Assembly (NCBI GenBank): GCA_043806975.1
Contig: JAZDGL010000069.1
Span: 1 to 61,656, forward strand
Length of the DNA: 61,656 nt
Direction of reading: 5' to 3'
DNA from: a bacterium
GTDB taxonomy: Bacteria; Patescibacteriota; Minisyncoccia; CAYZDR01
The notes under the pieces are model-generated. The model worked only from the letters and a program-made list of their open reading frames with translations, was not told the origin of the DNA and ran no database searches. Made by a program: the position numbers and the translations under genes. Positions 1,864 to 61,656 of the stretch are shown here, one piece after another (the first letter of the stretch is position 1; every line of letters starts with the position of its first letter).

Positions 1864-1934
1864 GGGCCTATGGTTCAGTGGTAAGACGCCACATTCGCAT
1901 TGTGGAGACGGGAGTTCGATTCTCCCTAGGTCCA
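1864..1934 (+). tRNA. tRNA-Ala (anticodon CGC)
   Basis: Hand-folded cloverleaf. Acceptor GGGCCTA/TAGGTCC carries the G3:U70 Ala identity pair. Anticodon stem is CCACA/TGTGG with loop TTCGCAT. T arm is GGGAG-TTCGATT-CTCCC. No encoded CCA. Confidence 0.85.
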
Positions 1935-1976
1935 CAGGCAATAGCAGACGGAGTTGTTGATAGCGGTTTTTTAATT

Positions 1977-2066
1977 ATAGCTCCCGCAAAACAAATTCCA
2001 ATATTTTCTCCCCGCGAAAAGGGAGATTGAGAGGGATTCTAAAATAAATTTGTTTTGCGACAGCTA
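1977..2066 (+). repeat. family-1 TIR/hairpin repeat, 1 module
   Basis: Sequence is TATAGCTCCCGCAAAACAAATTCC...TCTCCCcgcgaaaaGGGAGATTGAGAGGG...AAATTTGTTTTGCGACAGCTA. The termini are inverted repeats of each other. Confidence 0.9.
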
Positions 2067-2091
2067 AGGAGACTGCTGAATTACAAATATA

Positions 2092-2898
2092 ATGGAAAAT
2101 AAAAATATGGCGAAACAAATAATAATTACAGCAGAATATTTTCGTCAATATCGTCAAAAGCTGGGATTTCCAAGCCAAGCAGATGTAAAAATTTTTTTTG
2201 GCGCGAAAGATATTGCGCCAACGGTTGACTTAAATTATATTTATTTGCTAAACGGGAGGCTTTACGATGTAATTGATAAAGTAAATTCTGTTGTTGCTGA
2301 TGAAATAAAAATTGATGATGCAGTTGCATTCAAAAAAGAGTGCGTGGATCGAACTCTTGAGATTATGAGAGCTAATGATATTTTGCCGATGCTTAATAAC
2401 CAAGGGCGAAGACCAGAGCAAGTTTATTATTCTTGGATGAGAGGCTATGTTTTATCATGTTATTTTTTAAAAGCGCTTGGTTTGATATTTGAAGTGGATA
2501 TTTCAAATATAGATTTAATAGGAGATGATGGCTTAAAGAATATTGAGACATTTAAAAGAACGCCAAAGGCAGATTTGGAGATTAAATTAAATGGAAAAGA
2601 AAAAATTAGGGTAGAAATACAGTCGGGCTTTACTGGGATAAATGATATTAAACAACATAAAGTTTTAGAAGCGAAAAGAGTTTTTCGTGATTTAGGTTTT
2701 CATACATTGGCAATTCACTTTGATTTATACAATGGTCAAGCTGCTTTTATAAAATTAGATGAGATAGAGGATGATAGTGTGAATTGGATCACAAGACAAC
2801 AAATGGAGGGACAAACAGTTTTTAATATTGATCAAAATTATTTCATTTGGAAGATTACAGAAAGTCCAATAAGATTTAAGGAAATAAATTTTGGTTAG
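2092..2898 (+). CDS. putative type II restriction endonuclease (partner of the adjacent C5-MTase)
   Basis: It ends 12 nt upstream of a Dcm-type methyltransferase on the same strand. PKADLEI...VEIQSG resembles a PD-(D/E)XK core. I cannot assign a family. Confidence 0.45.
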   Translation: MENKNMAKQIIITAEYFRQYRQKLGFPSQADVKIFFGAKDIAPTVDLNYIYLLNGRLYDVIDKVNSVVADEIKIDDAVAFKKECVDRTLEIMRANDILPMLNNQGRRPEQVYYSWMRGYVLSCYFLKALGLIFEVDISNIDLIGDDGLKNIETFKRTPKADLEIKLNGKEKIRVEIQSGFTGINDIKQHKVLEAKRVFRDLGFHTLAIHFDLYNGQAAFIKLDEIEDDSVNWITRQQMEGQTVFNIDQNYFIWKITESPIRFKEINFG

Positions 2899-2910
2899 AA
2901 CTGTTTTTTT

Positions 2911-4038
2911 ATGAATAAAAATAAAAAATTAAAAGTAATAGATTTATTTTCTGGCGTTGGCGGATTAAGTTATGGTTTTGCTTGCGATGATAATTTTGAA
3001 ATAGTAGCGGCGAATGAAATTTTAATGAATATGGCAAAAGCATATTCATTAAATCATCCAACGGTAAAAGTATATGCGGAAGATATAAAAAATTTTAATG
3101 CTGGAAAAGTTGAAAAAGATTTAAATATCAAATCAAGCGAGATTGATATTGTCGTTGGTGGACCGCCTTGCCAGGCATATTCAACTGTTGGGAAAAGGCT
3201 AAACAATGATCCGCGAGGAAAATTATTCCAAGAGTATTATAGAGTATTAAAAGAGTTTAACCCTAGATTATTTCTTTTTGAGAATGTAAAAGGTCTTTTG
3301 TCAATGCAAAACGGTGAATTATTGAAAACTATTATTTCTCTTTTTGAATCGCTTGGATATAAAGTGTGGCACAAGCTTTTGAATGCCGCTGATTATGGCG
3401 CGCCGCAAATGAGAGAAAGAGTTGTAATTATTGGTTCAAAACTAAAAACTGATTTTAAATATCCAGAACCAACGCATTATAATCCTGCGGATGCAGCAGG
3501 GTTGTTCGCTACGAAACTCAAGCCTTATTTAACGCTTGAAGAGGCAATAAGCGATTTGCCATTTATCAAATCAAATGAGGAAAGTTTTGAATATTCTTCC
3601 GAGCCTCAGAATGATTTTCAAAATTTTATGCGTAAAAATGCGCCAGCAAAATTGATGGATCATAACTCCCCAAAGAATAATGGAAATTTGGTAAGAATAA
3701 TGGAATTATTGCCAGATGGCGGGACGCCCGAGGATTTGCCTGAATATTTGCGTCCTATGTCGGGTTTTAAAAATACTTATTGCCGTTTGTGGTGGAAAAG
3801 ACCGGCGATGACGATTACAAGAAATTTAGGCACGCCTTCATCATCCCGTTGTATCCATCCAAAAGCGCCAAGACCGCTTACAACAAGAGAAGGCGCAAGA
3901 ATCCAATGTTTCCCTGATGATTATAAATTTTTTGGTTCTAGGGGGGATAGAAATTTACAAGTGGGGAATGCTGTGCCGACATTTTTGTCAAATGCAATTG
4001 CAAAAGCAATTTTAAAAAATTTTAGAGAAAATAGCTAA
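2911..4038 (+). CDS. dcm: DNA (cytosine-5)-methyltransferase
   Basis: Canonical C5-MTase motifs are present: DLFSGVGG (I), GGPPCQAYS (IV), ENV (VI), QMRERV (VIII), GNAVP (X). Confidence 0.92.
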   Translation: MNKNKKLKVIDLFSGVGGLSYGFACDDNFEIVAANEILMNMAKAYSLNHPTVKVYAEDIKNFNAGKVEKDLNIKSSEIDIVVGGPPCQAYSTVGKRLNNDPRGKLFQEYYRVLKEFNPRLFLFENVKGLLSMQNGELLKTIISLFESLGYKVWHKLLNAADYGAPQMRERVVIIGSKLKTDFKYPEPTHYNPADAAGLFATKLKPYLTLEEAISDLPFIKSNEESFEYSSEPQNDFQNFMRKNAPAKLMDHNSPKNNGNLVRIMELLPDGGTPEDLPEYLRPMSGFKNTYCRLWWKRPAMTITRNLGTPSSSRCIHPKAPRPLTTREGARIQCFPDDYKFFGSRGDRNLQVGNAVPTFLSNAIAKAILKNFRENS

Positions 4039-4149
4039 TAGTTTAGCTTTTCAAACTTTTATCCACAACCTCATTAGCAAAAATTAAAAGTATCTAGTAT
4101 AATTAAAAAGCAGAGTATGGCGGATTATTTTTTGAAGTGATAAAAAACG

Positions 4150-4189
4150 GAATTTGCTTTGCGACAGTTATATTTTGCAAGAAGCTATA
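4150..4189 (+). repeat. two tandem solo 3'-TIR remnants of family 1
   Basis: GAATTTGCTTTGCGACAGTTA is followed by TTTTGCAAGAAGCTATA. The first matches the 3' TIR at 2046-2066 in 18 of 21 positions. Confidence 0.6.
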
Positions 4190-27469: not shown

Positions 27470-27694
27470 GCTGTTTTGCGATAGCTATAGCTGCCGCAAA
27501 ACAAATTCCAATATTTTCTCCTTTTGGTTCTCCTTCGCCCTATGGGCTTCGCGGGATGCAGCAAGGGAGATTAAGAGGGATTCCAATATTTTCTCCTCGC
27601 AATAAGGGAGACTGAGAGGGATTCCAATATTTCCTCCCTTAATAAGGGGGGATGAAGGGGGTTTTTAAAATAAATTTGTTTTGCGGAAGCTATA
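27470..27694 (+). repeat. family-1 cluster: solo 3' TIR plus full element with 3 tandem modules
   Basis: GCTGTTTTGCGATAGCTA overlaps the start of the full element, TATAGCTGCCGCAAAACAAATTCC. Three units of ATTCCAATATTT(T/C)CTCC-loop-GG(G)GA..AGAGGG follow, and it ends TTTGTTTTGCGGAAGCTATA. Confidence 0.9.
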
Positions 27695-27715
27695 ATTTAT
27701 TTGCAAATAAGTTTA

Positions 27716-27786
27716 CGGGGTATAGCGTAAAGGTAGCGCGCAGCTTTCGGGTAGCTGTAGTTCCAGTTCAATTCTGGATACCCCGA
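27716..27786 (+). tRNA. tRNA-Pro (anticodon CGG)
   Basis: Acceptor CGGGGTA/TACCCCG, U8, D stem GCGT/GCGC, anticodon stem CAGCT/AGCTG with loop TTCGGGT (G37), T arm TCCAG-TTCAATT-CTGGA. Confidence 0.85.
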
Positions 27787-27798
27787 CAGGAAGTTTAA

Positions 27799-27852
27799 AT
27801 TAAAATTGCTCAAGCATTAGATATAAAAGTGGATGATTTAACCAAAAAATAA
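27799..27852 (+). pseudogene. C-terminal remnant of an XRE/controller-type HTH gene
   Basis: Translates to IKIAQALDIKVDDLTKK*, typical of the last helix and tail of XRE HTH proteins. A TAA lies immediately upstream, there is no start codon, and it ends 2 nt before the MTase ATG. Confidence 0.4.
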
Positions 27853-27854
27853 AT

Positions 27855-29126
27855 ATGAGCCAAACAGTTATCTCGTTATTGAATAAAATAAAAATTGATC
27901 CATCGTGGTCTTTTTCCGATAAAACAAGGAAGGAAACGGCGTATATTACGCATGGGTATCATCGTTATCCTGCAAAATTTATTCCGCAAATAGTTTCTCG
28001 TTTGGCGGAAAAATATACACGAGCAGGCGATTTTATCGTTGATCCATTTGGTGGTTGCGGGACGACTCTTGTTGAATCAAGAGTTATGGGACGGCCGTCA
28101 ATTGCCGTTGATATTAACCCAGTCGCTGTTTTAATTACGAAAGCGAAAATTACGGCAATTGATCCTATAAAAATTGAAAAGGAATTTACAATTTTTCAAA
28201 AGAAATTGGAATCTTATAGCGAAAAAACAAAAGTAAAAGCTCCTGAGCACGAAAGAATTGACTATTGGTTTAAGCCAGAAGAAAAAAGAAAACTTGCTTT
28301 TATTTTTGCTGAGATTTCAAAAATAAAAGATCAAGATATTCAAGATTTCTTTTTCTGCGGGTTTTCAAACATTCTTAAAAATTGTTCAATATGGCTACAA
28401 AAAAGTAATAAACCAACAAGGGATTTTGAAAAAAAACCTTCGGAGCCGATTAAAACATTTTTAAAACAAATAAAAATGATGTTGCGAGGCAACACGCGAT
28501 TATTTGAATTGTTATCAGAAAAAGGTTATTCGAAGATTTCAAGTAAAGTAATTTGCACAGACGCAAGGACAATTCCCGCAAAGGATAACAGTGTTAGCTT
28601 GATTGTTACTTCTCCGCCTTATGTGACCTCTTACGAATACGCCGATCTGCACCAACTCACTGCTTTATGGTTAGAATATACTAAGGATTTGAGCGACTTT
28701 CGAAAACGATTTATTGGCACTTCGTATCACAATAAAAAAGATTTGACGCTTAATAGTGCGATTGCGGAAAATATCAGAAAAAAATTGTTAGAGAAAGATA
28801 AAAAAACCGCCGAGGAAGTTTCAACATACTTTAGCGAGATGAATCAGGTATTTGTTGAAATGAAAAGAATGCTAAAAAAAGGCGGAAAAACCTGTATTGT
28901 CATTGGCAATACGAGCTTAAAAGGCGTTGAAATACTTAATGCGGAGGTTTTTGTTGAGCAATTACAAAACTTGGGATTAAAAATCGCCGATATTATTAAA
29001 AGAGAAATTCCTTCAAAAAATTTGCCGTCTGTTCGAGATGAAAAGACGGGTAAATTTGCGAGCATAAATGATAAAAATAAAGTTTCTGTTTATCCAACAG
29101 AGTATATATTAATAATGGAAAAATAA
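27855..29126 (+). CDS. DNA methyltransferase, N4-cytosine or N6-adenine (SPPY type)
   Basis: Motif I DPFGGCGTT near the N-terminus and motif IV TSPPY about 190 aa later (alpha-like order). SPPY is commoner in m4C enzymes. Confidence 0.8.
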   Translation: MSQTVISLLNKIKIDPSWSFSDKTRKETAYITHGYHRYPAKFIPQIVSRLAEKYTRAGDFIVDPFGGCGTTLVESRVMGRPSIAVDINPVAVLITKAKITAIDPIKIEKEFTIFQKKLESYSEKTKVKAPEHERIDYWFKPEEKRKLAFIFAEISKIKDQDIQDFFFCGFSNILKNCSIWLQKSNKPTRDFEKKPSEPIKTFLKQIKMMLRGNTRLFELLSEKGYSKISSKVICTDARTIPAKDNSVSLIVTSPPYVTSYEYADLHQLTALWLEYTKDLSDFRKRFIGTSYHNKKDLTLNSAIAENIRKKLLEKDKKTAEEVSTYFSEMNQVFVEMKRMLKKGGKTCIVIGNTSLKGVEILNAEVFVEQLQNLGLKIADIIKREIPSKNLPSVRDEKTGKFASINDKNKVSVYPTEYILIMEK

Positions 29127-29130
29127 AACT

Positions 29131-29799
29131 ATGAGTATAAACGACCTTATCAAAATTTACGAAACAAAAAAGAAAAAATATGGTGTGCAAGCATATCGCC
29201 ACATTTCAAATGTTTTGAAAGAAGCCAAAGAATTACATAAAAAAGATTTTACAGGCAATGACCACGAGCAATCGTGGCGCGCTTTCAAAGGTAAAAACTT
29301 GGAAAAATTGATTGAATACATTATCACGGATGAAGTTAACGCTTTAAACTTGCGGGTAGTAAATGGAAATAGTCTTGAAAGAACGAACGGATCAAATCTT
29401 TCAAAAGAGTTAAGTTTGGTTAAAAGAAATCTAATTGTTGATTATGGCGAGTTTGGTTCGCATTTACCGGATGTCGATTTGATTATTTACGACCCAAAAA
29501 CTAGCAAAGTCGTTGCTGTTTTGTCAAGCAAGGTAACTTTGCGGGAAAGAATAGCCCAAACTGGTTATTGGAAAATTAAACTTGCCTCTGACGAAGCGAC
29601 AAAACATATCAAAGTTTATTTCGTAACGCCGGATGAAGACGGAACACTAACGATTAAAAAACCTACAAAAAAAGGCAGGGCAATCGTTGAAGTGGATACA
29701 GACGGCAGTTATGTTTTGAGTGAGACAGATATTGAGGAAAGCGACAAGGTAAAAATGTTTGATAAATTTATTGATGATCTTAAGAAATTGCTCAAATAA
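29131..29799 (+). CDS. type II restriction endonuclease, PD-(D/E)XK, possibly CCGG-family-like
   Basis: It sits between two MTase genes with gaps of 4-5 nt. PDVDLIIYD...VLSSKVTLRER gives a PD...SxK core followed by K-x3-R-E-R. Confidence 0.65.
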   Translation: MSINDLIKIYETKKKKYGVQAYRHISNVLKEAKELHKKDFTGNDHEQSWRAFKGKNLEKLIEYIITDEVNALNLRVVNGNSLERTNGSNLSKELSLVKRNLIVDYGEFGSHLPDVDLIIYDPKTSKVVAVLSSKVTLRERIAQTGYWKIKLASDEATKHIKVYFVTPDEDGTLTIKKPTKKGRAIVEVDTDGSYVLSETDIEESDKVKMFDKFIDDLKKLLK

Positions 29800-29804
29800 A
29801 TAAT

Positions 29805-30533
29805 ATGTCCAATAATTTAATAATTGAGTCAACAACTTTATGGGATTTTCCGAGACAAAATTATGGTGACAAGCCACACGGAAATAATAAATATAACGGT
29901 GTAACGCCGGCTTTTGTCATTTGGAATTTACTCCAAAGATATACCAAAGAGGGCGATTTAGTCGTTGATCCGATGTGCGGGAGCGGGACGACAATTGATG
30001 TTGCAAAAGAATTGAACAGGAAAGTAATCGGCTATGATCTGAACATTGTTAGACCCGATGTAATTAAAAACGATGCCCGACAAATTCCGCTTGCTGACAA
30101 TTCTGTTGATTTTGTTTTTATTGATTCGCCATATTCCGACAATATCAATTATTCTGACAATAAAGAGTGCATTGGTAAAATTTCTTGCGAAAAAATAGAA
30201 TTTTATGATGAATTAGAAAAAACCGCTACGGAAATTGCAAGAATTTTAAAACCTGGAAAAGCTATGGGTTGGGTTATTGCCGATCAATGGGTCAAAAAGA
30301 AATTTACAGCCGTTGGATTTTTGATGTGGCAAAGGTTAGAAAAACATTTTGAACCAATGGATATTGTTTGCTTAACAAGGCATAACCAAACATCAAACAC
30401 GGGGATTTGGCATAACAGAGCAAGGCAGTTTAATTTTTATTTGAGAGGTTTTAAATATTTGTTTATTATGAGAAAATCAGCGCCATTGCGAGAAAAGCAG
30501 GTGAGTAGTCGTGAACCCAGCCATTTACTTTAA
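29805..30533 (+). CDS. second DNA methyltransferase (amino-MTase, motif I before motif IV)
   Basis: VVDPMCGSGTTIDVA (motif I) and FVFIDSPY (motif IV-like). Confidence 0.7.
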   Translation: MSNNLIIESTTLWDFPRQNYGDKPHGNNKYNGVTPAFVIWNLLQRYTKEGDLVVDPMCGSGTTIDVAKELNRKVIGYDLNIVRPDVIKNDARQIPLADNSVDFVFIDSPYSDNINYSDNKECIGKISCEKIEFYDELEKTATEIARILKPGKAMGWVIADQWVKKKFTAVGFLMWQRLEKHFEPMDIVCLTRHNQTSNTGIWHNRARQFNFYLRGFKYLFIMRKSAPLREKQVSSREPSHLL

Positions 30534-30570
30534 ACTTAAAATATGGTAAAATAAAAAAGTGGAATTCACC

Positions 30571-30610
30571 GAAGAGGAATTTGTAAATAATTTTTTTTGC
30601 GGGATCTATA
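30571..30610 (+). repeat. family-1 3' half element
   Basis: GAAGAGGAATTTGTAAATAATTTTTTTTGCGGGATCTATA aligns to GAGAGGGATTCTAAAATAAATTTGTTTTGCGGGAGCTATA. Confidence 0.65.
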
Positions 30611-56770: not shown

Positions 56771-57268
56771 ATGCAGGATTTATTATTATTTTTAATTTTC
56801 TTTTTCGCTTCTATTGCTGATGTCGCTTTTTTTGCAAGTTTTTCGGGAAAATTTCCGATATTTTTATCGCTAGCGCTGGCAATAGTTTTGGCGGCTGATT
56901 TTAATGAGCGGGGGCAGTTTTTTTGGATAATGACGCCTGTGGCTGTAATAAGTATTTTTTCAAAGTCATTTTTAAGGATTTTCGCCTATTTTTATTTCGC
57001 CTATTTTTTTACCAGGTTTTTATCCAGGAAGATTAAATCGGAGAAGAAAATAAAAATAGCGCTGATTTATTTTTTGCCGATTTTGATATGCGCGCTATGG
57101 AATGTATTTTATAGAACGAGCGGGTTTAAAAAGCTGGATTTAGATATTCTCACATTGCAAGCGGAGTTTATTGTGATAGAGTTATTTTTCATTTTTTTGA
57201 TCAAAAAAATCTGTAAAATTATAAAAATAAAGCGCGATTTTGATGGAACAAGATTCAAACGAATTTAA
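56771..57268 (+). CDS. mreD: rod shape-determining protein MreD
   Basis: 165-aa polytopic membrane protein in the canonical position between mreC and PBP2. The call rests mainly on position. Confidence 0.65.
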   Translation: MQDLLLFLIFFFASIADVAFFASFSGKFPIFLSLALAIVLAADFNERGQFFWIMTPVAVISIFSKSFLRIFAYFYFAYFFTRFLSRKIKSEKKIKIALIYFLPILICALWNVFYRTSGFKKLDLDILTLQAEFIVIELFFIFLIKKICKIIKIKRDFDGTRFKRI

Positions 57269-59180
57269 AAAATATAAAGTGTCAAAGAACAGGGATGAGA
57301 TTGAAGCGGAGCATGTGATGGCAGAGGCGAATTTAGATGATGACTATGGAGAATTTGAATTTTCTTTGGGCGGAGCTAGAATTTGGAGCTTGGGGGTTTT
57401 TATTATTTTGGCGCTGCTTGTATTTTTGGGAAAAACGGCTTATTTGCAAGTGATAAGAGGAGCGATTTATCAGAACGAAGCGCTTGAAAATAAAATAAAA
57501 AAAATTCCCGTTGAAGCGCCGAGGGGTATAATATTTTCAAGAGATGGGAGGCAGCTGGTTTCCAATTCAGCAGTTTTTGATTTAGCCGCGGCGCAAAAAA
57601 CTTTTCCAAAAAGCGAAGCTGGGCGCAATGAAATTATTAAGAATTTGAAAGATTTGCAGGGGGCATATTCCAATGGAGAGGCTTTGAAAGAAATTTCTGA
57701 CGCGATTTTAAATTTTAATTTGGATAAATCGTCGCTTATTTTATATAAAGATATTCCAAGAGAAATTGCTCTTGCGATTGAAGCCAATTCGGAGAAATTT
57801 TTGGGAGTGGAGGTTTTGAGGGGAATTTCTCGTTTTTATATTGAAAAAGATATAATGGCGCATATTTTGGGGTATTTAGGCCTTGTTTCCAAAGATGATT
57901 TAAAAAAAGGTTCGCAGTATTTGCCTACGCAGGTTATTGGAAAATCAGGTGTGGAGTTGGTTTATGAGGATTTATTAAAGGGCGAGCTTGGCGTTCAGCT
58001 TGTTGAAACCGATTCTTCTGGCGCAAAAAAAGAGAATTTAGCGCTTAAAGAGCCTGAACCTGGCCGCGATTTGATTATTTCAATAGACTTTGATTTGCAG
58101 AAATTTATTTATAATGTTTTGAAAATTAGAGCGTTTGAAAGCGAGTCAGATAAGGCTTGCGCTGTGGCGATGAACCCGAAAAATGGAGAAATTTTGGCGC
58201 TGGTGAATTTGCCATCTTTTGATAATAATGTTTTTTCAGGGAATATAAACAAGGGCGAATATGACAAGCTGATTTTAGATAAGAATAAGCCGCTTTTTAA
58301 TAGGGTAATTTCTGGGGAATATCCGCCTGGATCAACCATAAAACCGGTGGTGGGGATTGCGGCGCTGGAAGAGAATGTTGTTAGTAGGAATACAGTAATT
58401 CAAGATAATGGCGTAATAACGATAGTAAATCAATATAATCCTGGCGTTGTTTATAATTTTTTTGGGTGGAATAGATCGGGCTTGGGTCCGATGGATATTT
58501 TTAGCGCAATTGCGCAGTCGTCAGACATTTTCTTTTATACAGCGGGAGGCGGAAATGGCGATTTTTCTGGCTTGGGGGTGGATAAGTTGAATAGTTATTT
58601 TAAAAAATTCGGGATGGGCGAAAAACTTTTGATAGATTTGCCGGGAGAATCTGCGGGGCTGGTTCCCGACCCTCAGTGGAAAAAGAAAATAAAAAATGAA
58701 GATTGGTTTTTGGGCGATACTTACCATATTTCAATCGGGCAGGGCGATTTGCTGGCAACTCCTTTACAGGTGGCGGGGTGGACTGCGGCAATTGCGAATG
58801 GTGGAGTTTTGATGAAGCCTCATTTGGGAATTTTTGAGGTAGAACCGAACGGCGATAAAAAAGCGGTAGAGGCGGAAGTTTTGCGAAAACTTGACTTAGA
58901 AAGTAAAAATCTTGAAATTATAAAAGAGGCGATGCGAAAGTCGGTTTTAGAGGGATCGGCGAAGAGTTTGGCAAATTTACCGGTTGAAATTGCGGGAAAA
59001 ACTGGAACGGCTGAATTTGGCGGGCAAGATCAAACGCACGCGTGGTTCACTTGTTTCGCTCCCTTTAATAATCCTGAAATTGTTTTAGTTATTTTAGTTG
59101 AAGGCGGAGGCGGCGGAAGCGATGTCGCTGTCCCAATCGCAAAAGAAATTTTAGAATTTTGGGCAGATAAATACTTTTAG
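57243..59180 (+). CDS. mrdA: penicillin-binding protein 2 (elongation transpeptidase)
   Basis: TM anchor, dimerisation domain RGIIFSRDGRQLV, SxxK (GSTIKP), SxD (SSD) at the SxN position, KTG (GKTGTAE). Confidence 0.9.
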   Translation: MEQDSNEFKKYKVSKNRDEIEAEHVMAEANLDDDYGEFEFSLGGARIWSLGVFIILALLVFLGKTAYLQVIRGAIYQNEALENKIKKIPVEAPRGIIFSRDGRQLVSNSAVFDLAAAQKTFPKSEAGRNEIIKNLKDLQGAYSNGEALKEISDAILNFNLDKSSLILYKDIPREIALAIEANSEKFLGVEVLRGISRFYIEKDIMAHILGYLGLVSKDDLKKGSQYLPTQVIGKSGVELVYEDLLKGELGVQLVETDSSGAKKENLALKEPEPGRDLIISIDFDLQKFIYNVLKIRAFESESDKACAVAMNPKNGEILALVNLPSFDNNVFSGNINKGEYDKLILDKNKPLFNRVISGEYPPGSTIKPVVGIAALEENVVSRNTVIQDNGVITIVNQYNPGVVYNFFGWNRSGLGPMDIFSAIAQSSDIFFYTAGGGNGDFSGLGVDKLNSYFKKFGMGEKLLIDLPGESAGLVPDPQWKKKIKNEDWFLGDTYHISIGQGDLLATPLQVAGWTAAIANGGVLMKPHLGIFEVEPNGDKKAVEAEVLRKLDLESKNLEIIKEAMRKSVLEGSAKSLANLPVEIAGKTGTAEFGGQDQTHAWFTCFAPFNNPEIVLVILVEGGGGGSDVAVPIAKEILEFWADKYF

Positions 59181-59196
59181 AGCAAGCGAGGAATTT

Positions 59197-59225
59197 TTGC
59201 GTAAAAATTGCGTTTTTGGTATAAT
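59197..59225 (+). promoter_or_regulatory. sigma-70-type promoter upstream of the third R-M cassette
   Basis: TTGCGT, 17-nt spacer, TATAAT. Confidence 0.55.
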
Positions 59226-59238
59226 GATATTAAGGAAT

Positions 59239-59459
59239 ATATAGCTTTTGTAAAATAATTATATGGTAACTATTTCAATATCACAAAAAAAATTTCAAAA
59301 AATGAAAAAACTTTATGATAGATTTTATGAGATATATGGGGACAATGAAACCGTTTGGGATTTAAGCGATTTAGATAATATGCGCGAGATGGGGCAGGAA
59401 TTTATGGATATTTTCGCTGTTAATTTTAAAGAATAAATAAATTAGTTTTGCGAGAGCTA
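59239..59459 (+). repeat. family-1-like TIR pair enclosing a small ORF instead of hairpin modules
   Basis: The left end TATAGCTTTTGTAAAATAA resembles the divergent copy at 21750. The right end AAATAAATTAGTTTTGCGAGAGCTA matches the 3' TIR consensus. Confidence 0.5.
59263..59436 (+). CDS. 57-aa acidic small protein, absent from the ORF track
   Basis: MVTISISQKKFQKMKKLYDRFYEIYGDNETVWDLSDLDNMREMGQEFMDIFAVNFKE. It lies downstream of the 59197 promoter. There is no clear SD. Confidence 0.3.
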   Translation: MVTISISQKKFQKMKKLYDRFYEIYGDNETVWDLSDLDNMREMGQEFMDIFAVNFKE

Positions 59460-59483
59460 CATTATTATGAAAATAAAAAACAT

Positions 59484-60347
59484 ATGGATAATTACGAAGA
59501 TTTTAAAAACAGATTTAAACTTTTAGCTAGTAAAAATCATCATTTGGTAGTTAATACATTGTCAAATATTTTTACAATGCGGTTGATTGGCAATAAAACA
59601 CACGGAGATTTAGCGGAAATTGGGATGGTTGAATTTATCAATCAATTTATGTATGACTTTAAAAGTATCCATGTCGGGAAAGATCGTTTTAGAGCAAAAG
59701 AGCATGAAGAAGATATTATGATAATAAATGAAATAAATAAAACAGAATTTCCTGTTAGTCTAAAAGCTTATGGAGTTGGTCCATTGCAGTTATCAACTGA
59801 TAGCCAGCAAAAAATGTTTCCTTTTCTTGAAAAACAGGGGCGAATGATAAAAGATTATGAAAAAGTAAGGGGAGTTTTTAACGCTTCTGAATTTTCTGAT
59901 TTTGGAGCTATAAATATTATGCCATTGATTTATGATGAAGAAAATCAACGCTGCAATATTATGATATTTAACCATAGAAAAGCGATGTCTGATACGATGA
60001 AAATCATATTCGTTGATAGAGGGAAAAAAATTGACTTTTCAACGGGAAAAATTATAGCAGGAAAAGGGAGATCTCATCCTATTTTTATGTTTTTAGATTC
60101 AAAGAATAATTATATATGCGAGGTAAGGTATGGAGGCGCATCTGCAAATGCTTTGCAACGCGGTCTTTGGACGCATACAAAAAATGCTGTAAGCTATTTT
60201 GATTCGTTGACAAATGGATGGATAGATTATTCGTATAATCATACGCTCGTTAAACTTTTTGGTCTTGCTTTAAATAGTTCTGAAGATGGTCATAAAATAG
60301 CCAATGATATATTGCAAAAAGATATTGAGAGGCTGAAAAAGATATGA
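59484..60347 (+). CDS. putative type II restriction endonuclease (partner of the D12 MTase)
   Basis: 4-nt overlap with the downstream adenine MTase. HGDLAEIGMVEF...EEDIMIIN...VSLKAYG is compatible with a PD-(D/E)XK core. The ATG at 59484 is preferred because the 59448 start lies in the TIR. Confidence 0.5.
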   Translation: MDNYEDFKNRFKLLASKNHHLVVNTLSNIFTMRLIGNKTHGDLAEIGMVEFINQFMYDFKSIHVGKDRFRAKEHEEDIMIINEINKTEFPVSLKAYGVGPLQLSTDSQQKMFPFLEKQGRMIKDYEKVRGVFNASEFSDFGAINIMPLIYDEENQRCNIMIFNHRKAMSDTMKIIFVDRGKKIDFSTGKIIAGKGRSHPIFMFLDSKNNYICEVRYGGASANALQRGLWTHTKNAVSYFDSLTNGWIDYSYNHTLVKLFGLALNSSEDGHKIANDILQKDIERLKKI

Positions 60348-61462
60348 GTGGGAAGCAATTAGATATTTTTGGAAAGGAAGCATTGATTATCCCAAAAACG
60401 GAGGGAATAAAGTATGCAGGTTCAAAACTAAAAATACTACCGTATATTATCCAGCTTTTAAGCGAAATTGGTGAAGTAAAAAATGTGTTAGACGGATTTA
60501 GCGGGACGACCAGAGTGTCGCAGGCGCTTGCTCAGCTTGGGTATAAAATAACAGCTAATGATGTTTCGGCGTGGTCAGAGGTTTTTGGTGTTTGCTATTT
60601 GAGGTCAGACAAGGAAGATAAATTTTATCAAGAGATTTTAAATCATCTGAATGGTTTAAAGGGGTATGATGGTTGGTTCACGAAACATTATGGAGTTGAA
60701 ATAAGTGGAGGGAAAAAACCATTTCAAGCGAAAAATACTAGAAAATTAGATGCAATTAGAGATGAAATAGATAAATTAAATTTGATTTGGGAAGATAAGT
60801 GTGTTATTTTAACGAGTCTTATTTATGCTCTTGATTCTGTTGATAATACTATTGGACATTACGCGTCTTATTTGGCAAAATGGTCGCCTAGATCGCATAA
60901 TAATCTATTTTTAAAATTGCCTAGGAGGTTTAAGAATAACCAAAGTCATAAAATAATTCGCGGGGATATTTTTGATGTAATACGGAAAAAAGAATTTGAT
61001 TTTGCTTATTTTGATCCCCCTTATGGTTCCAATAATGAAAAAATGCCTCCAAGCCGCGTAAGATATTCTTCTTATTACCATATTTGGACTACGGTGATTA
61101 ACAATGATAAGCCGGAATTATTCGGGAAAGTTAATCGTAGGGCAGACACAAGAGATTTGATAGCCGGATCTGTGTTTGAAGAATATAGAAAAAATGAGAA
61201 TGGAAATTTTATTGCTATGGAGGCTTTGAGGAAATTGATTCAGCAAACTAAATCTCGTTATATTCTTCTTTCATATAGCTCTGGCGGGAGGGCGACAAAA
61301 CAGGAGTTGAATGGCATAATTCATGAATCAGGAAAACTATTAAAAGCAGTTGAAATTAATTATAAAGTGAATGTTATGGGAGGGATGCGCTGGACAAATG
61401 AATGGGTCAACAACGACAGCCAGCATCATGAGTATTTATTTCTAATGGAAAAAAACAAATAG
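60344..61462 (+). CDS. N6-adenine DNA methyltransferase, D12 (Dam-like) class
   Basis: IKYAGSKLKILPYI (Dam-like N-terminus), motif I LDGFSGTTRVS, motif IV FAYFDPPYG. Confidence 0.8.
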   Translation: MSGKQLDIFGKEALIIPKTEGIKYAGSKLKILPYIIQLLSEIGEVKNVLDGFSGTTRVSQALAQLGYKITANDVSAWSEVFGVCYLRSDKEDKFYQEILNHLNGLKGYDGWFTKHYGVEISGGKKPFQAKNTRKLDAIRDEIDKLNLIWEDKCVILTSLIYALDSVDNTIGHYASYLAKWSPRSHNNLFLKLPRRFKNNQSHKIIRGDIFDVIRKKEFDFAYFDPPYGSNNEKMPPSRVRYSSYYHIWTTVINNDKPELFGKVNRRADTRDLIAGSVFEEYRKNENGNFIAMEALRKLIQQTKSRYILLSYSSGGRATKQELNGIIHESGKLLKAVEINYKVNVMGGMRWTNEWVNNDSQHHEYLFLMEKNK

Positions 61463-61656
61463 GGTTTTGGTGTTGGATAAACCGCTCGTAGTTAGTTGAA
61501 GGGTTTTTTAACTGTCTGTTTGTTGCATATTTTTCTATTGGTGGTATAATTATTGTAAAGTTAATAAAAAGCAATGGCATAGCGGGAAGAAGCTGTGTTT
61601 TTGCATTATTTATAATTAACTAAATAGGGGGGAGGAACAATAAAAAATGAATGAAA

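Follow-up and report, generated by a model that had tools for sequence, protein, structure and literature searches.

Controller (C) proteins such as C.PvuII, C.AhdI and C.Esp1396I belong to type II restriction-modification (R-M) systems. In Neisseria, minimal mobile elements are alternative cassettes, R-M cassettes among them, that lie between conserved housekeeping genes, and the RUP of pneumococcus and the Correia elements of Neisseria are miniature inverted-repeat transposable elements (MITEs). SspI is a type IIP R-M system that recognises AATATT (REBASE/NEB). Here we analyse an SspI-like R-M pair, consisting of an endonuclease (R) and an adenine methyltransferase (M), together with the 57-aa small gene and the MITE end that precede it in a patescibacterial genome. 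The pair lies at the end of a stretch of 61,656 nt (the window; contig JAZDGL010000069.1 of GenBank assembly GCA_043806975.1), which is the entire contig C69 of a 670.5-kb assembly (G000) with 75 contigs, 37% GC and an estimated completeness of 87%; the genomes of the relatives with which it was compared measure 0.5-1.2 Mb. Patescibacteria mostly lack CRISPR and are thought to depend on R-M, according to a discussion in PMC12455944 that cites Burstein et al. 2016 (PMC4742961).

Taken as a whole, the best explanation of the locus, which we regard as quite probable, is that the small gene, R and M form a horizontally acquired islet, that the terminal inverted repeats (TIRs) on either side of the small gene are a decayed copy of a MITE family of this genome (family-1) in chance contact with the R-M genes, and that the small protein would regulate or restrain the neighbouring nuclease.

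An R-M islet between mrdA and greA

The islet separates two housekeeping genes that are neighbours in related genomes. On its left mrdA, which encodes PBP2, ends at 59180, and on its right greA begins at 61647 and runs off the contig. Positions 1-141 of contig C48 are identical to the last 141 nt of the window (61516-61656), C48 encodes GreA and then LysS, and the two contigs can be joined to give the order mrdA, islet, greA, lysS. In the three same-family genomes (G001-G003) greA-lysS follows directly after mrdA with a gap of ~70-110 nt. The GC content of the small open reading frame (ORF) (28%), R (31%) and M (35%) is low compared with mrdA (40%) and the genome (37%), and among 31 genomes, comprising G000 and 30 relatives, the R gene is carried by G000 only. 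Because mrdA directly precedes greA in the same-family genomes, GC is low and R is absent from the relatives, the interval 59181-61646, which holds the small ORF, R and M, is a horizontally acquired low-GC islet of ~2.4 kb. Every gene near the cassette lies on the + strand, and the features of the locus are as follows.

57240..59180, + strand: mrdA (PBP2), the left housekeeping flank (Pfam PBP_dimer and Transpeptidase; orthologs in 30 relatives)
59197..59225, + strand: promoter-like site P1, TTGCGT (59197-59202), 17 nt, TATAAT (59220-59225), with the TG-extended -10 TGGTATAAT (direct reading)
59240..59259, - strand: degenerate, probably real left arm of family-1 (14/20 matches, 6/20 mismatches; 2.8 bits)
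59263..59436, + strand: small gene (57 aa) whose family is undescribed and associated with R-M and nuclease genes (HMMER homologs, AF2 model, context census)
59442..59461, + strand: true family-1 3' TIR (right arm), its outer end 22 nt before the R start codon (3/20 mismatches; 27.5 bits)
59484..60347, + strand: R, SspI-like type II restriction endonuclease of 287 aa (homologs, PADLOC REase_II)
60344..61462, + strand: M, D12-class (alpha) N6-adenine DNA methyltransferase of 372 aa with a DPPY motif (PF02086)
61523..61550, + strand: promoter-like site P2 before greA, TTGCAT, 16 nt, TATAAT, TG-extended (direct reading)
61576..61599, + strand: weak hairpin in the greA leader, containing the string 61582-61597 (terminator-like match at chance rate)
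61647..61656, + strand: start of greA, the right housekeeping flank, which continues on contig C48 (contig overlap)

The identity of R comes from homology. PADLOC model PDLC03568 (REase_II) matches it end to end (E 2e-108, positions 5-275 of 281), and Pfam and NCBIfam gave no model for it. The R family has 3721 members at E<=1e-3, of which the top 120 share 75-84% identity, and one homolog cluster at 76% identity carries the source name SspI. These 120 best homologs are all ~287 aa long and align from MDNYEDF, which places the start of R at ATG 59484 and rules out TTG 59448, from which an ORF list had run it (59448-60347). M matches PF02086 (E 5.8e-21), and its ATG start (60344-60346) overlaps the TGA stop of R (60345-60347) as ATGA, through which M would be translationally coupled to R. 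A preliminary description, made from the sequence of the window, had proposed a putative nuclease and a Dam-like methyltransferase with overlapping stop and start codons at this place, and the model matches and the overlap bear this out. With endonuclease homology and an adjacent conserved methyltransferase both present, the R-M pair itself is an ordinary type II system, and it shares with the SspI system the adenine methyltransferase adjacent to R.

Paired R (287 aa) and M (371-373 aa) genes also occur in six other loci (L001-L006) with unrelated surroundings. DNA similarity to those loci is 77-79% and extends only from 59465-59470 to 61459-61465; the mobile unit is barely more than the two ORFs. 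SspI-like pairs elsewhere differ from the pair described here in lacking the small accessory gene and the MITE end in front of it. The top homologs of R span Patescibacteria, Gammaproteobacteria, Ignavibacteria, Planctomycetota and Deltaproteobacteria, a spread over many phyla that is typical of a horizontally mobile gene. We also note that the R homologs P0002-P0120 come from at least five phyla and yet keep 75-84% amino-acid identity, a closeness that is unusual for a family of restriction enzymes and suggests recent wide spread.

The pair most likely methylates and cuts AATATT. This word occurs 466 times in G000 against 821 expected from a maximal-order Markov model (observed/expected 0.57), and its z of -20.6 is the most negative of the 64 palindromic hexamers in the genome. 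The ratio of AATATT to its reversed word TTATAA is 0.72 in G000, which is the lowest among the 31 genomes (next lowest 0.89, median ~1.5). The depletion supports, without proving, an active AATATT system. Separately, several other palindromes lie far under expectation in G000 (GTATAC 0.13, CTGCAG 0.25, CTTAAG 0.29, GATATC 0.38 and ATTAAT 0.47), and these may be targets of past or present R-M systems, including those of eight other methyltransferase loci.

Transcription of the islet would most likely start from P1, and greA would be transcribed from P2, a similar second promoter behind the islet. P1 had been proposed in the preliminary description and is confirmed by direct reading, including its TG-extended -10; a consensus scanner did not list it because the -35 matches at only 3/6 positions. 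It occupies the place of the greA promoter of the relatives, which in G001-G003 reads TTGACA, 17 nt, TATAAT and overlaps the mrdA stop ahead of greA. The extended -10 word TGGTATAAT is found on both sides of the islet (59217-59225 and 61542-61550). A duplication of the promoter region at the islet ends was considered and is not claimed, as P1 and P2 share TTGC(G/A)T and TGGTATAAT but otherwise align poorly. In the genome at large TGNTATAAT has only 100 occurrences on both strands and lies within 130 nt upstream of 33 genes. The string at 61582-61597, which had been taken for a weak TIR-like sequence following the cassette, scores -21.7 bits with the family-1 weight matrix described below; it is not a TIR and forms part of the weak hairpin in the greA leader.

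In its setting the islet resembles the minimal mobile elements of Neisseria, where an R-M cassette likewise sits between conserved housekeeping genes and lacks an integrase, a tRNA gene and flanking repeats, and where related genomes have an empty site. The mrdA-greA site differs from these in that alternative occupants are known in Neisseria, whereas here there is the occupant of one genome only.

The 57-aa gene and its genomic company

Members of the small-gene family occur nearly always next to restriction genes or other nuclease genes. We collected 38 loci that carry it, of which 33 are non-redundant although partly related by descent, and annotated their neighbours by clustering, Pfam and PADLOC. 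A DNA methyltransferase or a recognised type II endonuclease lies within two genes at 25 of the 33 loci, with at least 10 enzyme families represented, and some nuclease or defence-type gene lies beside the small gene at 31 of them. For comparison, 5.8% of the genes of the R-M-rich G000 have a methyltransferase within two genes. A search for homologs of the 57-aa ORF next to other R-M systems, which the preliminary description had recommended, therefore gave a strongly positive answer.

Nuclease partners include SspI-, MjaI-, TdeIII- and DpnII-like enzymes, DUF6996/6997, three other PADLOC REase models, HNH, NYN and PDC-S18-like PD-(D/E)xK proteins, and the methyltransferase partners are of the D12, N6_N4 and Eco57I/TaqI types. 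The small gene is always co-directional with its partners and is either the first or the last gene (the last in roughly one locus in three). Any nuclease gene behind it begins between 29 nt inside and ~20 nt past the small-gene end. The commonest arrangement comprises four genes, namely a gamma N6-methyltransferase cut ~30 aa after NPPY, the small gene, a PDC-S18-like PD-(D/E)xK nuclease of ~330 aa and a protein of 120-216 aa (L038:2373-4714; also L035, L037, L041, L049, L051, L052, L059 and L064). This fourth protein has a variable N-terminus and a nuclease-like D..(V/I)KF motif. It was considered as a candidate for the missing C-terminal half of the cut methyltransferase; it shows no significant similarity to a full-length relative, and its motif looks rather like that of a nuclease. 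The four-gene arrangement looks like one old event that spread, being either a pair of small gene and nuclease lodged in a broken R-M pair or a split system. At L034, in a diderm bacterium, the small gene and a nuclease gene form an isolated pair with housekeeping genes on both sides. The upstream regions of the 38 loci share only an AT-rich leader, (T)TAATTTAT(T/C)AAT, and a reading by eye, made with no motif program, found no common palindrome or operator in them.

The protein itself belongs to a small family. An exhaustive HMMER search at E<=1e-3 returned 23 representative clusters. Some 19 of these are genuine small proteins, 41-79 aa long and 33-64% identical; matches of 402-906 aa proved to be VWA, LRR and TPR proteins and were discarded as spurious repeat matches. 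Residues I4, Y25, G26, W32 and G44 are nearly invariant, and all of them are kept in the intact ORF described here. The AF2 model (pLDDT 94) consists of a short N-terminal tail and two antiparallel helices (8-25 and 34-55) that form a two-helix hairpin, and the N-terminal third of the protein is basic while the remainder is acidic. A ribbon-helix-helix fold was considered in view of the strand-like N-terminus (MKTIxIS) and is not supported: both helices of the model are long and antiparallel, and no fold of that kind was recovered by Foldseek. No match to the small protein was found in Pfam, NCBIfam, PADLOC or PHROGs, and no relative in the viral contigs of IMG/VR; Foldseek with the model gave no match below E 0.3 in PDB or BFVD, and no PDB sequence was matched below E 0.08 in a profile search. 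The gene is single-copy in G000 and is carried by 3 of the 401 genomes of the class. It is a rare and patchily distributed accessory gene that is real and conserved. One relative, P0124 (161 aa), combines the small protein with a C-terminal portion of a HepT-like (HEPN) ribonuclease, which is one more toxin/defence neighbour; this may be a read-through of two adjacent genes.

From this company we propose that the small protein regulates or restrains the neighbouring nuclease, either as a transcription controller or as a direct inhibitor. In its fuller form the proposal is tentative, and we would put it somewhat below an even chance: the small protein may represent a new class of restriction and defence-nuclease partner without a helix-turn-helix, a controller or direct inhibitor that has been swapped among unrelated type II R-M systems and PD-(D/E)xK or NYN nucleases, mainly in Patescibacteria, and that does the job of C proteins or antitoxins.

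The family-1 repeat and other readings of the locus

Family-1 is a genome-specific, abundant MITE without a transposase of its own. Its end, TTTGTTTTGCGGGAGCTATA, has 163 matches in G000 at up to 4 mismatches, compared with 0-2 in shuffled genomes. In G000, 43 of the ends are solo, and the others make up 60 paired elements, each 90-279 nt long and with one to several hairpin modules inside. A 32-nt weight matrix made from 98 copies, which never exceeds 15 bits in shuffled genomes, finds 184 ends above 10 bits in 670 kb. At up to 3 mismatches there are 135 copies in G000, 0 in the three same-family genomes and chance-level numbers in 27 others. G000 contains no DDE_3 transposase, and an Rfam scan of the window returned three tRNAs only, with nothing on the repeat. 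Family-1 is similar to RUP and the Correia elements in its ~20-nt inverted ends starting with TA and its length of 90-280 nt, and as with these there are hundreds of ends per genome, which are intergenic, transcribed with their neighbours and enclose no transposase.

The copy in front of R is a decayed one. Its right arm is a true family-1 end. The left arm, which the preliminary description had placed at 59239, lies at 59240-59259 and is degenerate. With reversed or column-permuted matrices as controls, its score is reached at 1-10 sites per whole genome on both strands; the chance of meeting a site of this grade on the correct strand no more than 200-300 nt away from a true 3' arm is ~0.1-1%, and the left arm is probably real. 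As already described, the pair of arms encloses the 57-aa ORF (174 nt) instead of the 41-nt hairpin modules, and this ORF has homologs in MITE-free genomes. The arms around the small gene are the remains of a MITE copy, one arm good and one degenerate, and the copy departs from MITEs of the RUP/Correia type in having a conserved protein gene as its interior and a decayed left arm. The sequence flanking the right arm on its far side begins with CA, not TA. A role of the TIR end as a promoter for R was considered; inspection by eye revealed no -35/-10 pair at a workable distance, and none is claimed.

The window contains three R-M cassettes, of which the SspI-like one is the third, and all three had been said to abut a 3' TIR directly. 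This is true of cassettes 1 and 3, in which the TIR lies 23 and 22 nt ahead of the R-M genes, but in cassette 2 the first methyltransferase gene is separated from the TIR by a tRNA gene (27716-27786). As a side observation, cassettes 1 and 2 (1864-4172 and 27486-30610) each adjoin a tRNA gene (1864-1934 and the one just named) and are preceded by a complete family-1 element and followed by a solo 3' end, and both ends around cassette 1 share a GCGACAG variant.

Whole-genome counting places these contacts in proportion. Four Pfam families identify nine DNA-methyltransferase loci in the fragmented assembly, part of them on short contigs, and long ORFs rather than gene-caller output served as gene proxies. 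Under a loose definition, a family-1 end anywhere in the upstream gap, four of the nine loci qualify (the three of the window and one on C50); under a strict one, an end aimed at the first gene from within 150 nt, two do. As base rates, an end is present in 13% of all gaps, in 24% of those that measure at least 60 nt and before 17% of operon-first genes, which give binomial tails of 0.02 (loose, all gaps), 0.15 (loose, gaps of at least 60 nt) and 0.46 (strict). The larger base rates are the fair ones, because R-M cassettes are separate operons that always have real spacers. An association between R-M genes and family-1 is not established, and the suggestion that the repeats serve as landing pads for defence cassettes is not supported. 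The other possibility named in the preliminary description, a TIR that forms part of the regulatory region of the cassette, may hold. The frequency of the repeat, with 184 ends in the genome and an end in 24% of the gaps of at least 60 nt, is essentially that at which contact with three cassettes would be expected by chance. We propose that the contacts would reflect dense filling of spacers at operon boundaries by the MITE, and not cassette capture. The proposed link between R-M and MITE dissolves on such counting, which should spare others from building on it.

Several observations weigh against the overall reading of an acquired islet whose small protein acts on its nuclease and whose repeat is there by chance. 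The islet ends show no integrase, tRNA gene or flanking direct repeat that would mark the manner or time of entry, and synteny was compared at the family level, where the nearest genomes have only 52-54% PBP2 identity. The AATATT specificity would follow from one source label at 76% identity together with word depletion, and ATTAAT and several other palindromes are also depleted in G000. In the window, the gap in front of each of the three cassettes contains a TIR (P ~0.002-0.014 taken alone), so that a local link is possible, and cassettes 1 and 2 have a family-1 end downstream too. Finally, the small gene is missing from the SspI-like cassettes of the six other loci, and 47 nt and a TIR lie between it and R, so it may be a leftover of another module.

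These last points favour an alternative in which the small gene is the remnant of an earlier module of small gene and nuclease, for example a PDC-S18-like pairing, whose nuclease was displaced on the arrival of the SspI-like pair, and in which it would have no role in the R-M system here. The spacing of 47 nt with a MITE end exceeds that of the usual partner, and the commonest partner belongs to a different nuclease family. However, the ORF is intact with all its nearly invariant residues, it shares promoter and strand with the R-M genes, and a new partnership would suit a family whose partners already span at least 10 R-M enzyme families. We regard this displacement as rather unlikely, and the probability that the new-function and leftover readings leave over goes to roles that we are unable to name.

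A further alternative concerns the arms of the repeat, which could have been co-opted as a regulatory RNA stem. In the P1 transcript they would pair across the small ORF and either mask its start region or provide a site of processing, which would separate the small gene from the expression of the R-M genes. Both the minimum-energy fold and the centroid fold of 59232-59495 contain a stem between 59242-59260 and 59440-59459. The left arm differs from the consensus mostly by C-to-T changes, so that four pairs broken in the DNA survive as G-U in the sense RNA and 15 contiguous pairs result. Across the family, in 33 elements between co-directional genes, arm mismatches on the transcribed strand are G-U-compatible in 53 cases against 34 A-C, which hints weakly at selection for pairing in the RNA. 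This bias is marginal, however (P 0.053), the entire fold is no more stable than shuffles (z -0.75), a stem is expected from any MITE with inverted ends whether used or not, and homologs of the small gene elsewhere lack such flanks. We consider a functional stem improbable.

It is very improbable that family-1 ends act as recombination or integration substrates that capture defence cassettes, since the upstream ends of all three window cassettes, the solo downstream ends of cassettes 1 and 2 with the shared variant of cassette 1, and the onset of cassette 3 homology 4-9 nt after the TIR end are set against the two (strict) or four (loose) fitting loci of nine at base rates of 17% and 24%, the lack of a family-1 end downstream of cassette 3, an inter-cassette homology that ends 13-19 nt before the ATG in every pair with or without a TIR, the tRNA genes beside cassettes 1 and 2 as a classical island site, and the simpler reverse cause that MITEs pile up in dispensable spacers made by accessory genes.

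Comparison with antitoxins and controllers

If, as we favour, the small protein is a regulator or inhibitor of the neighbouring nuclease, two kinds of known partner invite comparison. The resemblance to type II toxin-antitoxin systems lies in a small upstream gene placed closely before, and sometimes overlapping, a nuclease gene, and in the stand-alone pair of L034. Unlike the antitoxins of such systems, the small protein matches no known antitoxin fold or family, and most loci have a methyltransferase, which should protect the host in any case. A neutralisation of the nuclease by the small protein, which by this analogy may occur, is suggested by gene order and spacing only. Should the proposed role be true, the small gene would also be a useful marker of defence islets in genomes where standard tools find little.

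The comparison with C proteins is closer in gene arrangement and more distant in structure. Like the genes of C proteins, the small gene is co-directional with many unrelated R-M families and often stands directly before the endonuclease gene, sometimes overlapping it. In contrast to C proteins, the small protein lacks the helix-turn-helix (Xre-type) fold, having no match in Pfam or NCBIfam and a two-helix hairpin as its model; moreover, its gene comes last in a third or so of the loci and also pairs with nucleases that lack a methyltransferase (L034 and L014). If the small protein does regulate or restrain nucleases, it would represent a second solution, structurally unrelated to C proteins, to the establishment of an R-M system in a new host.

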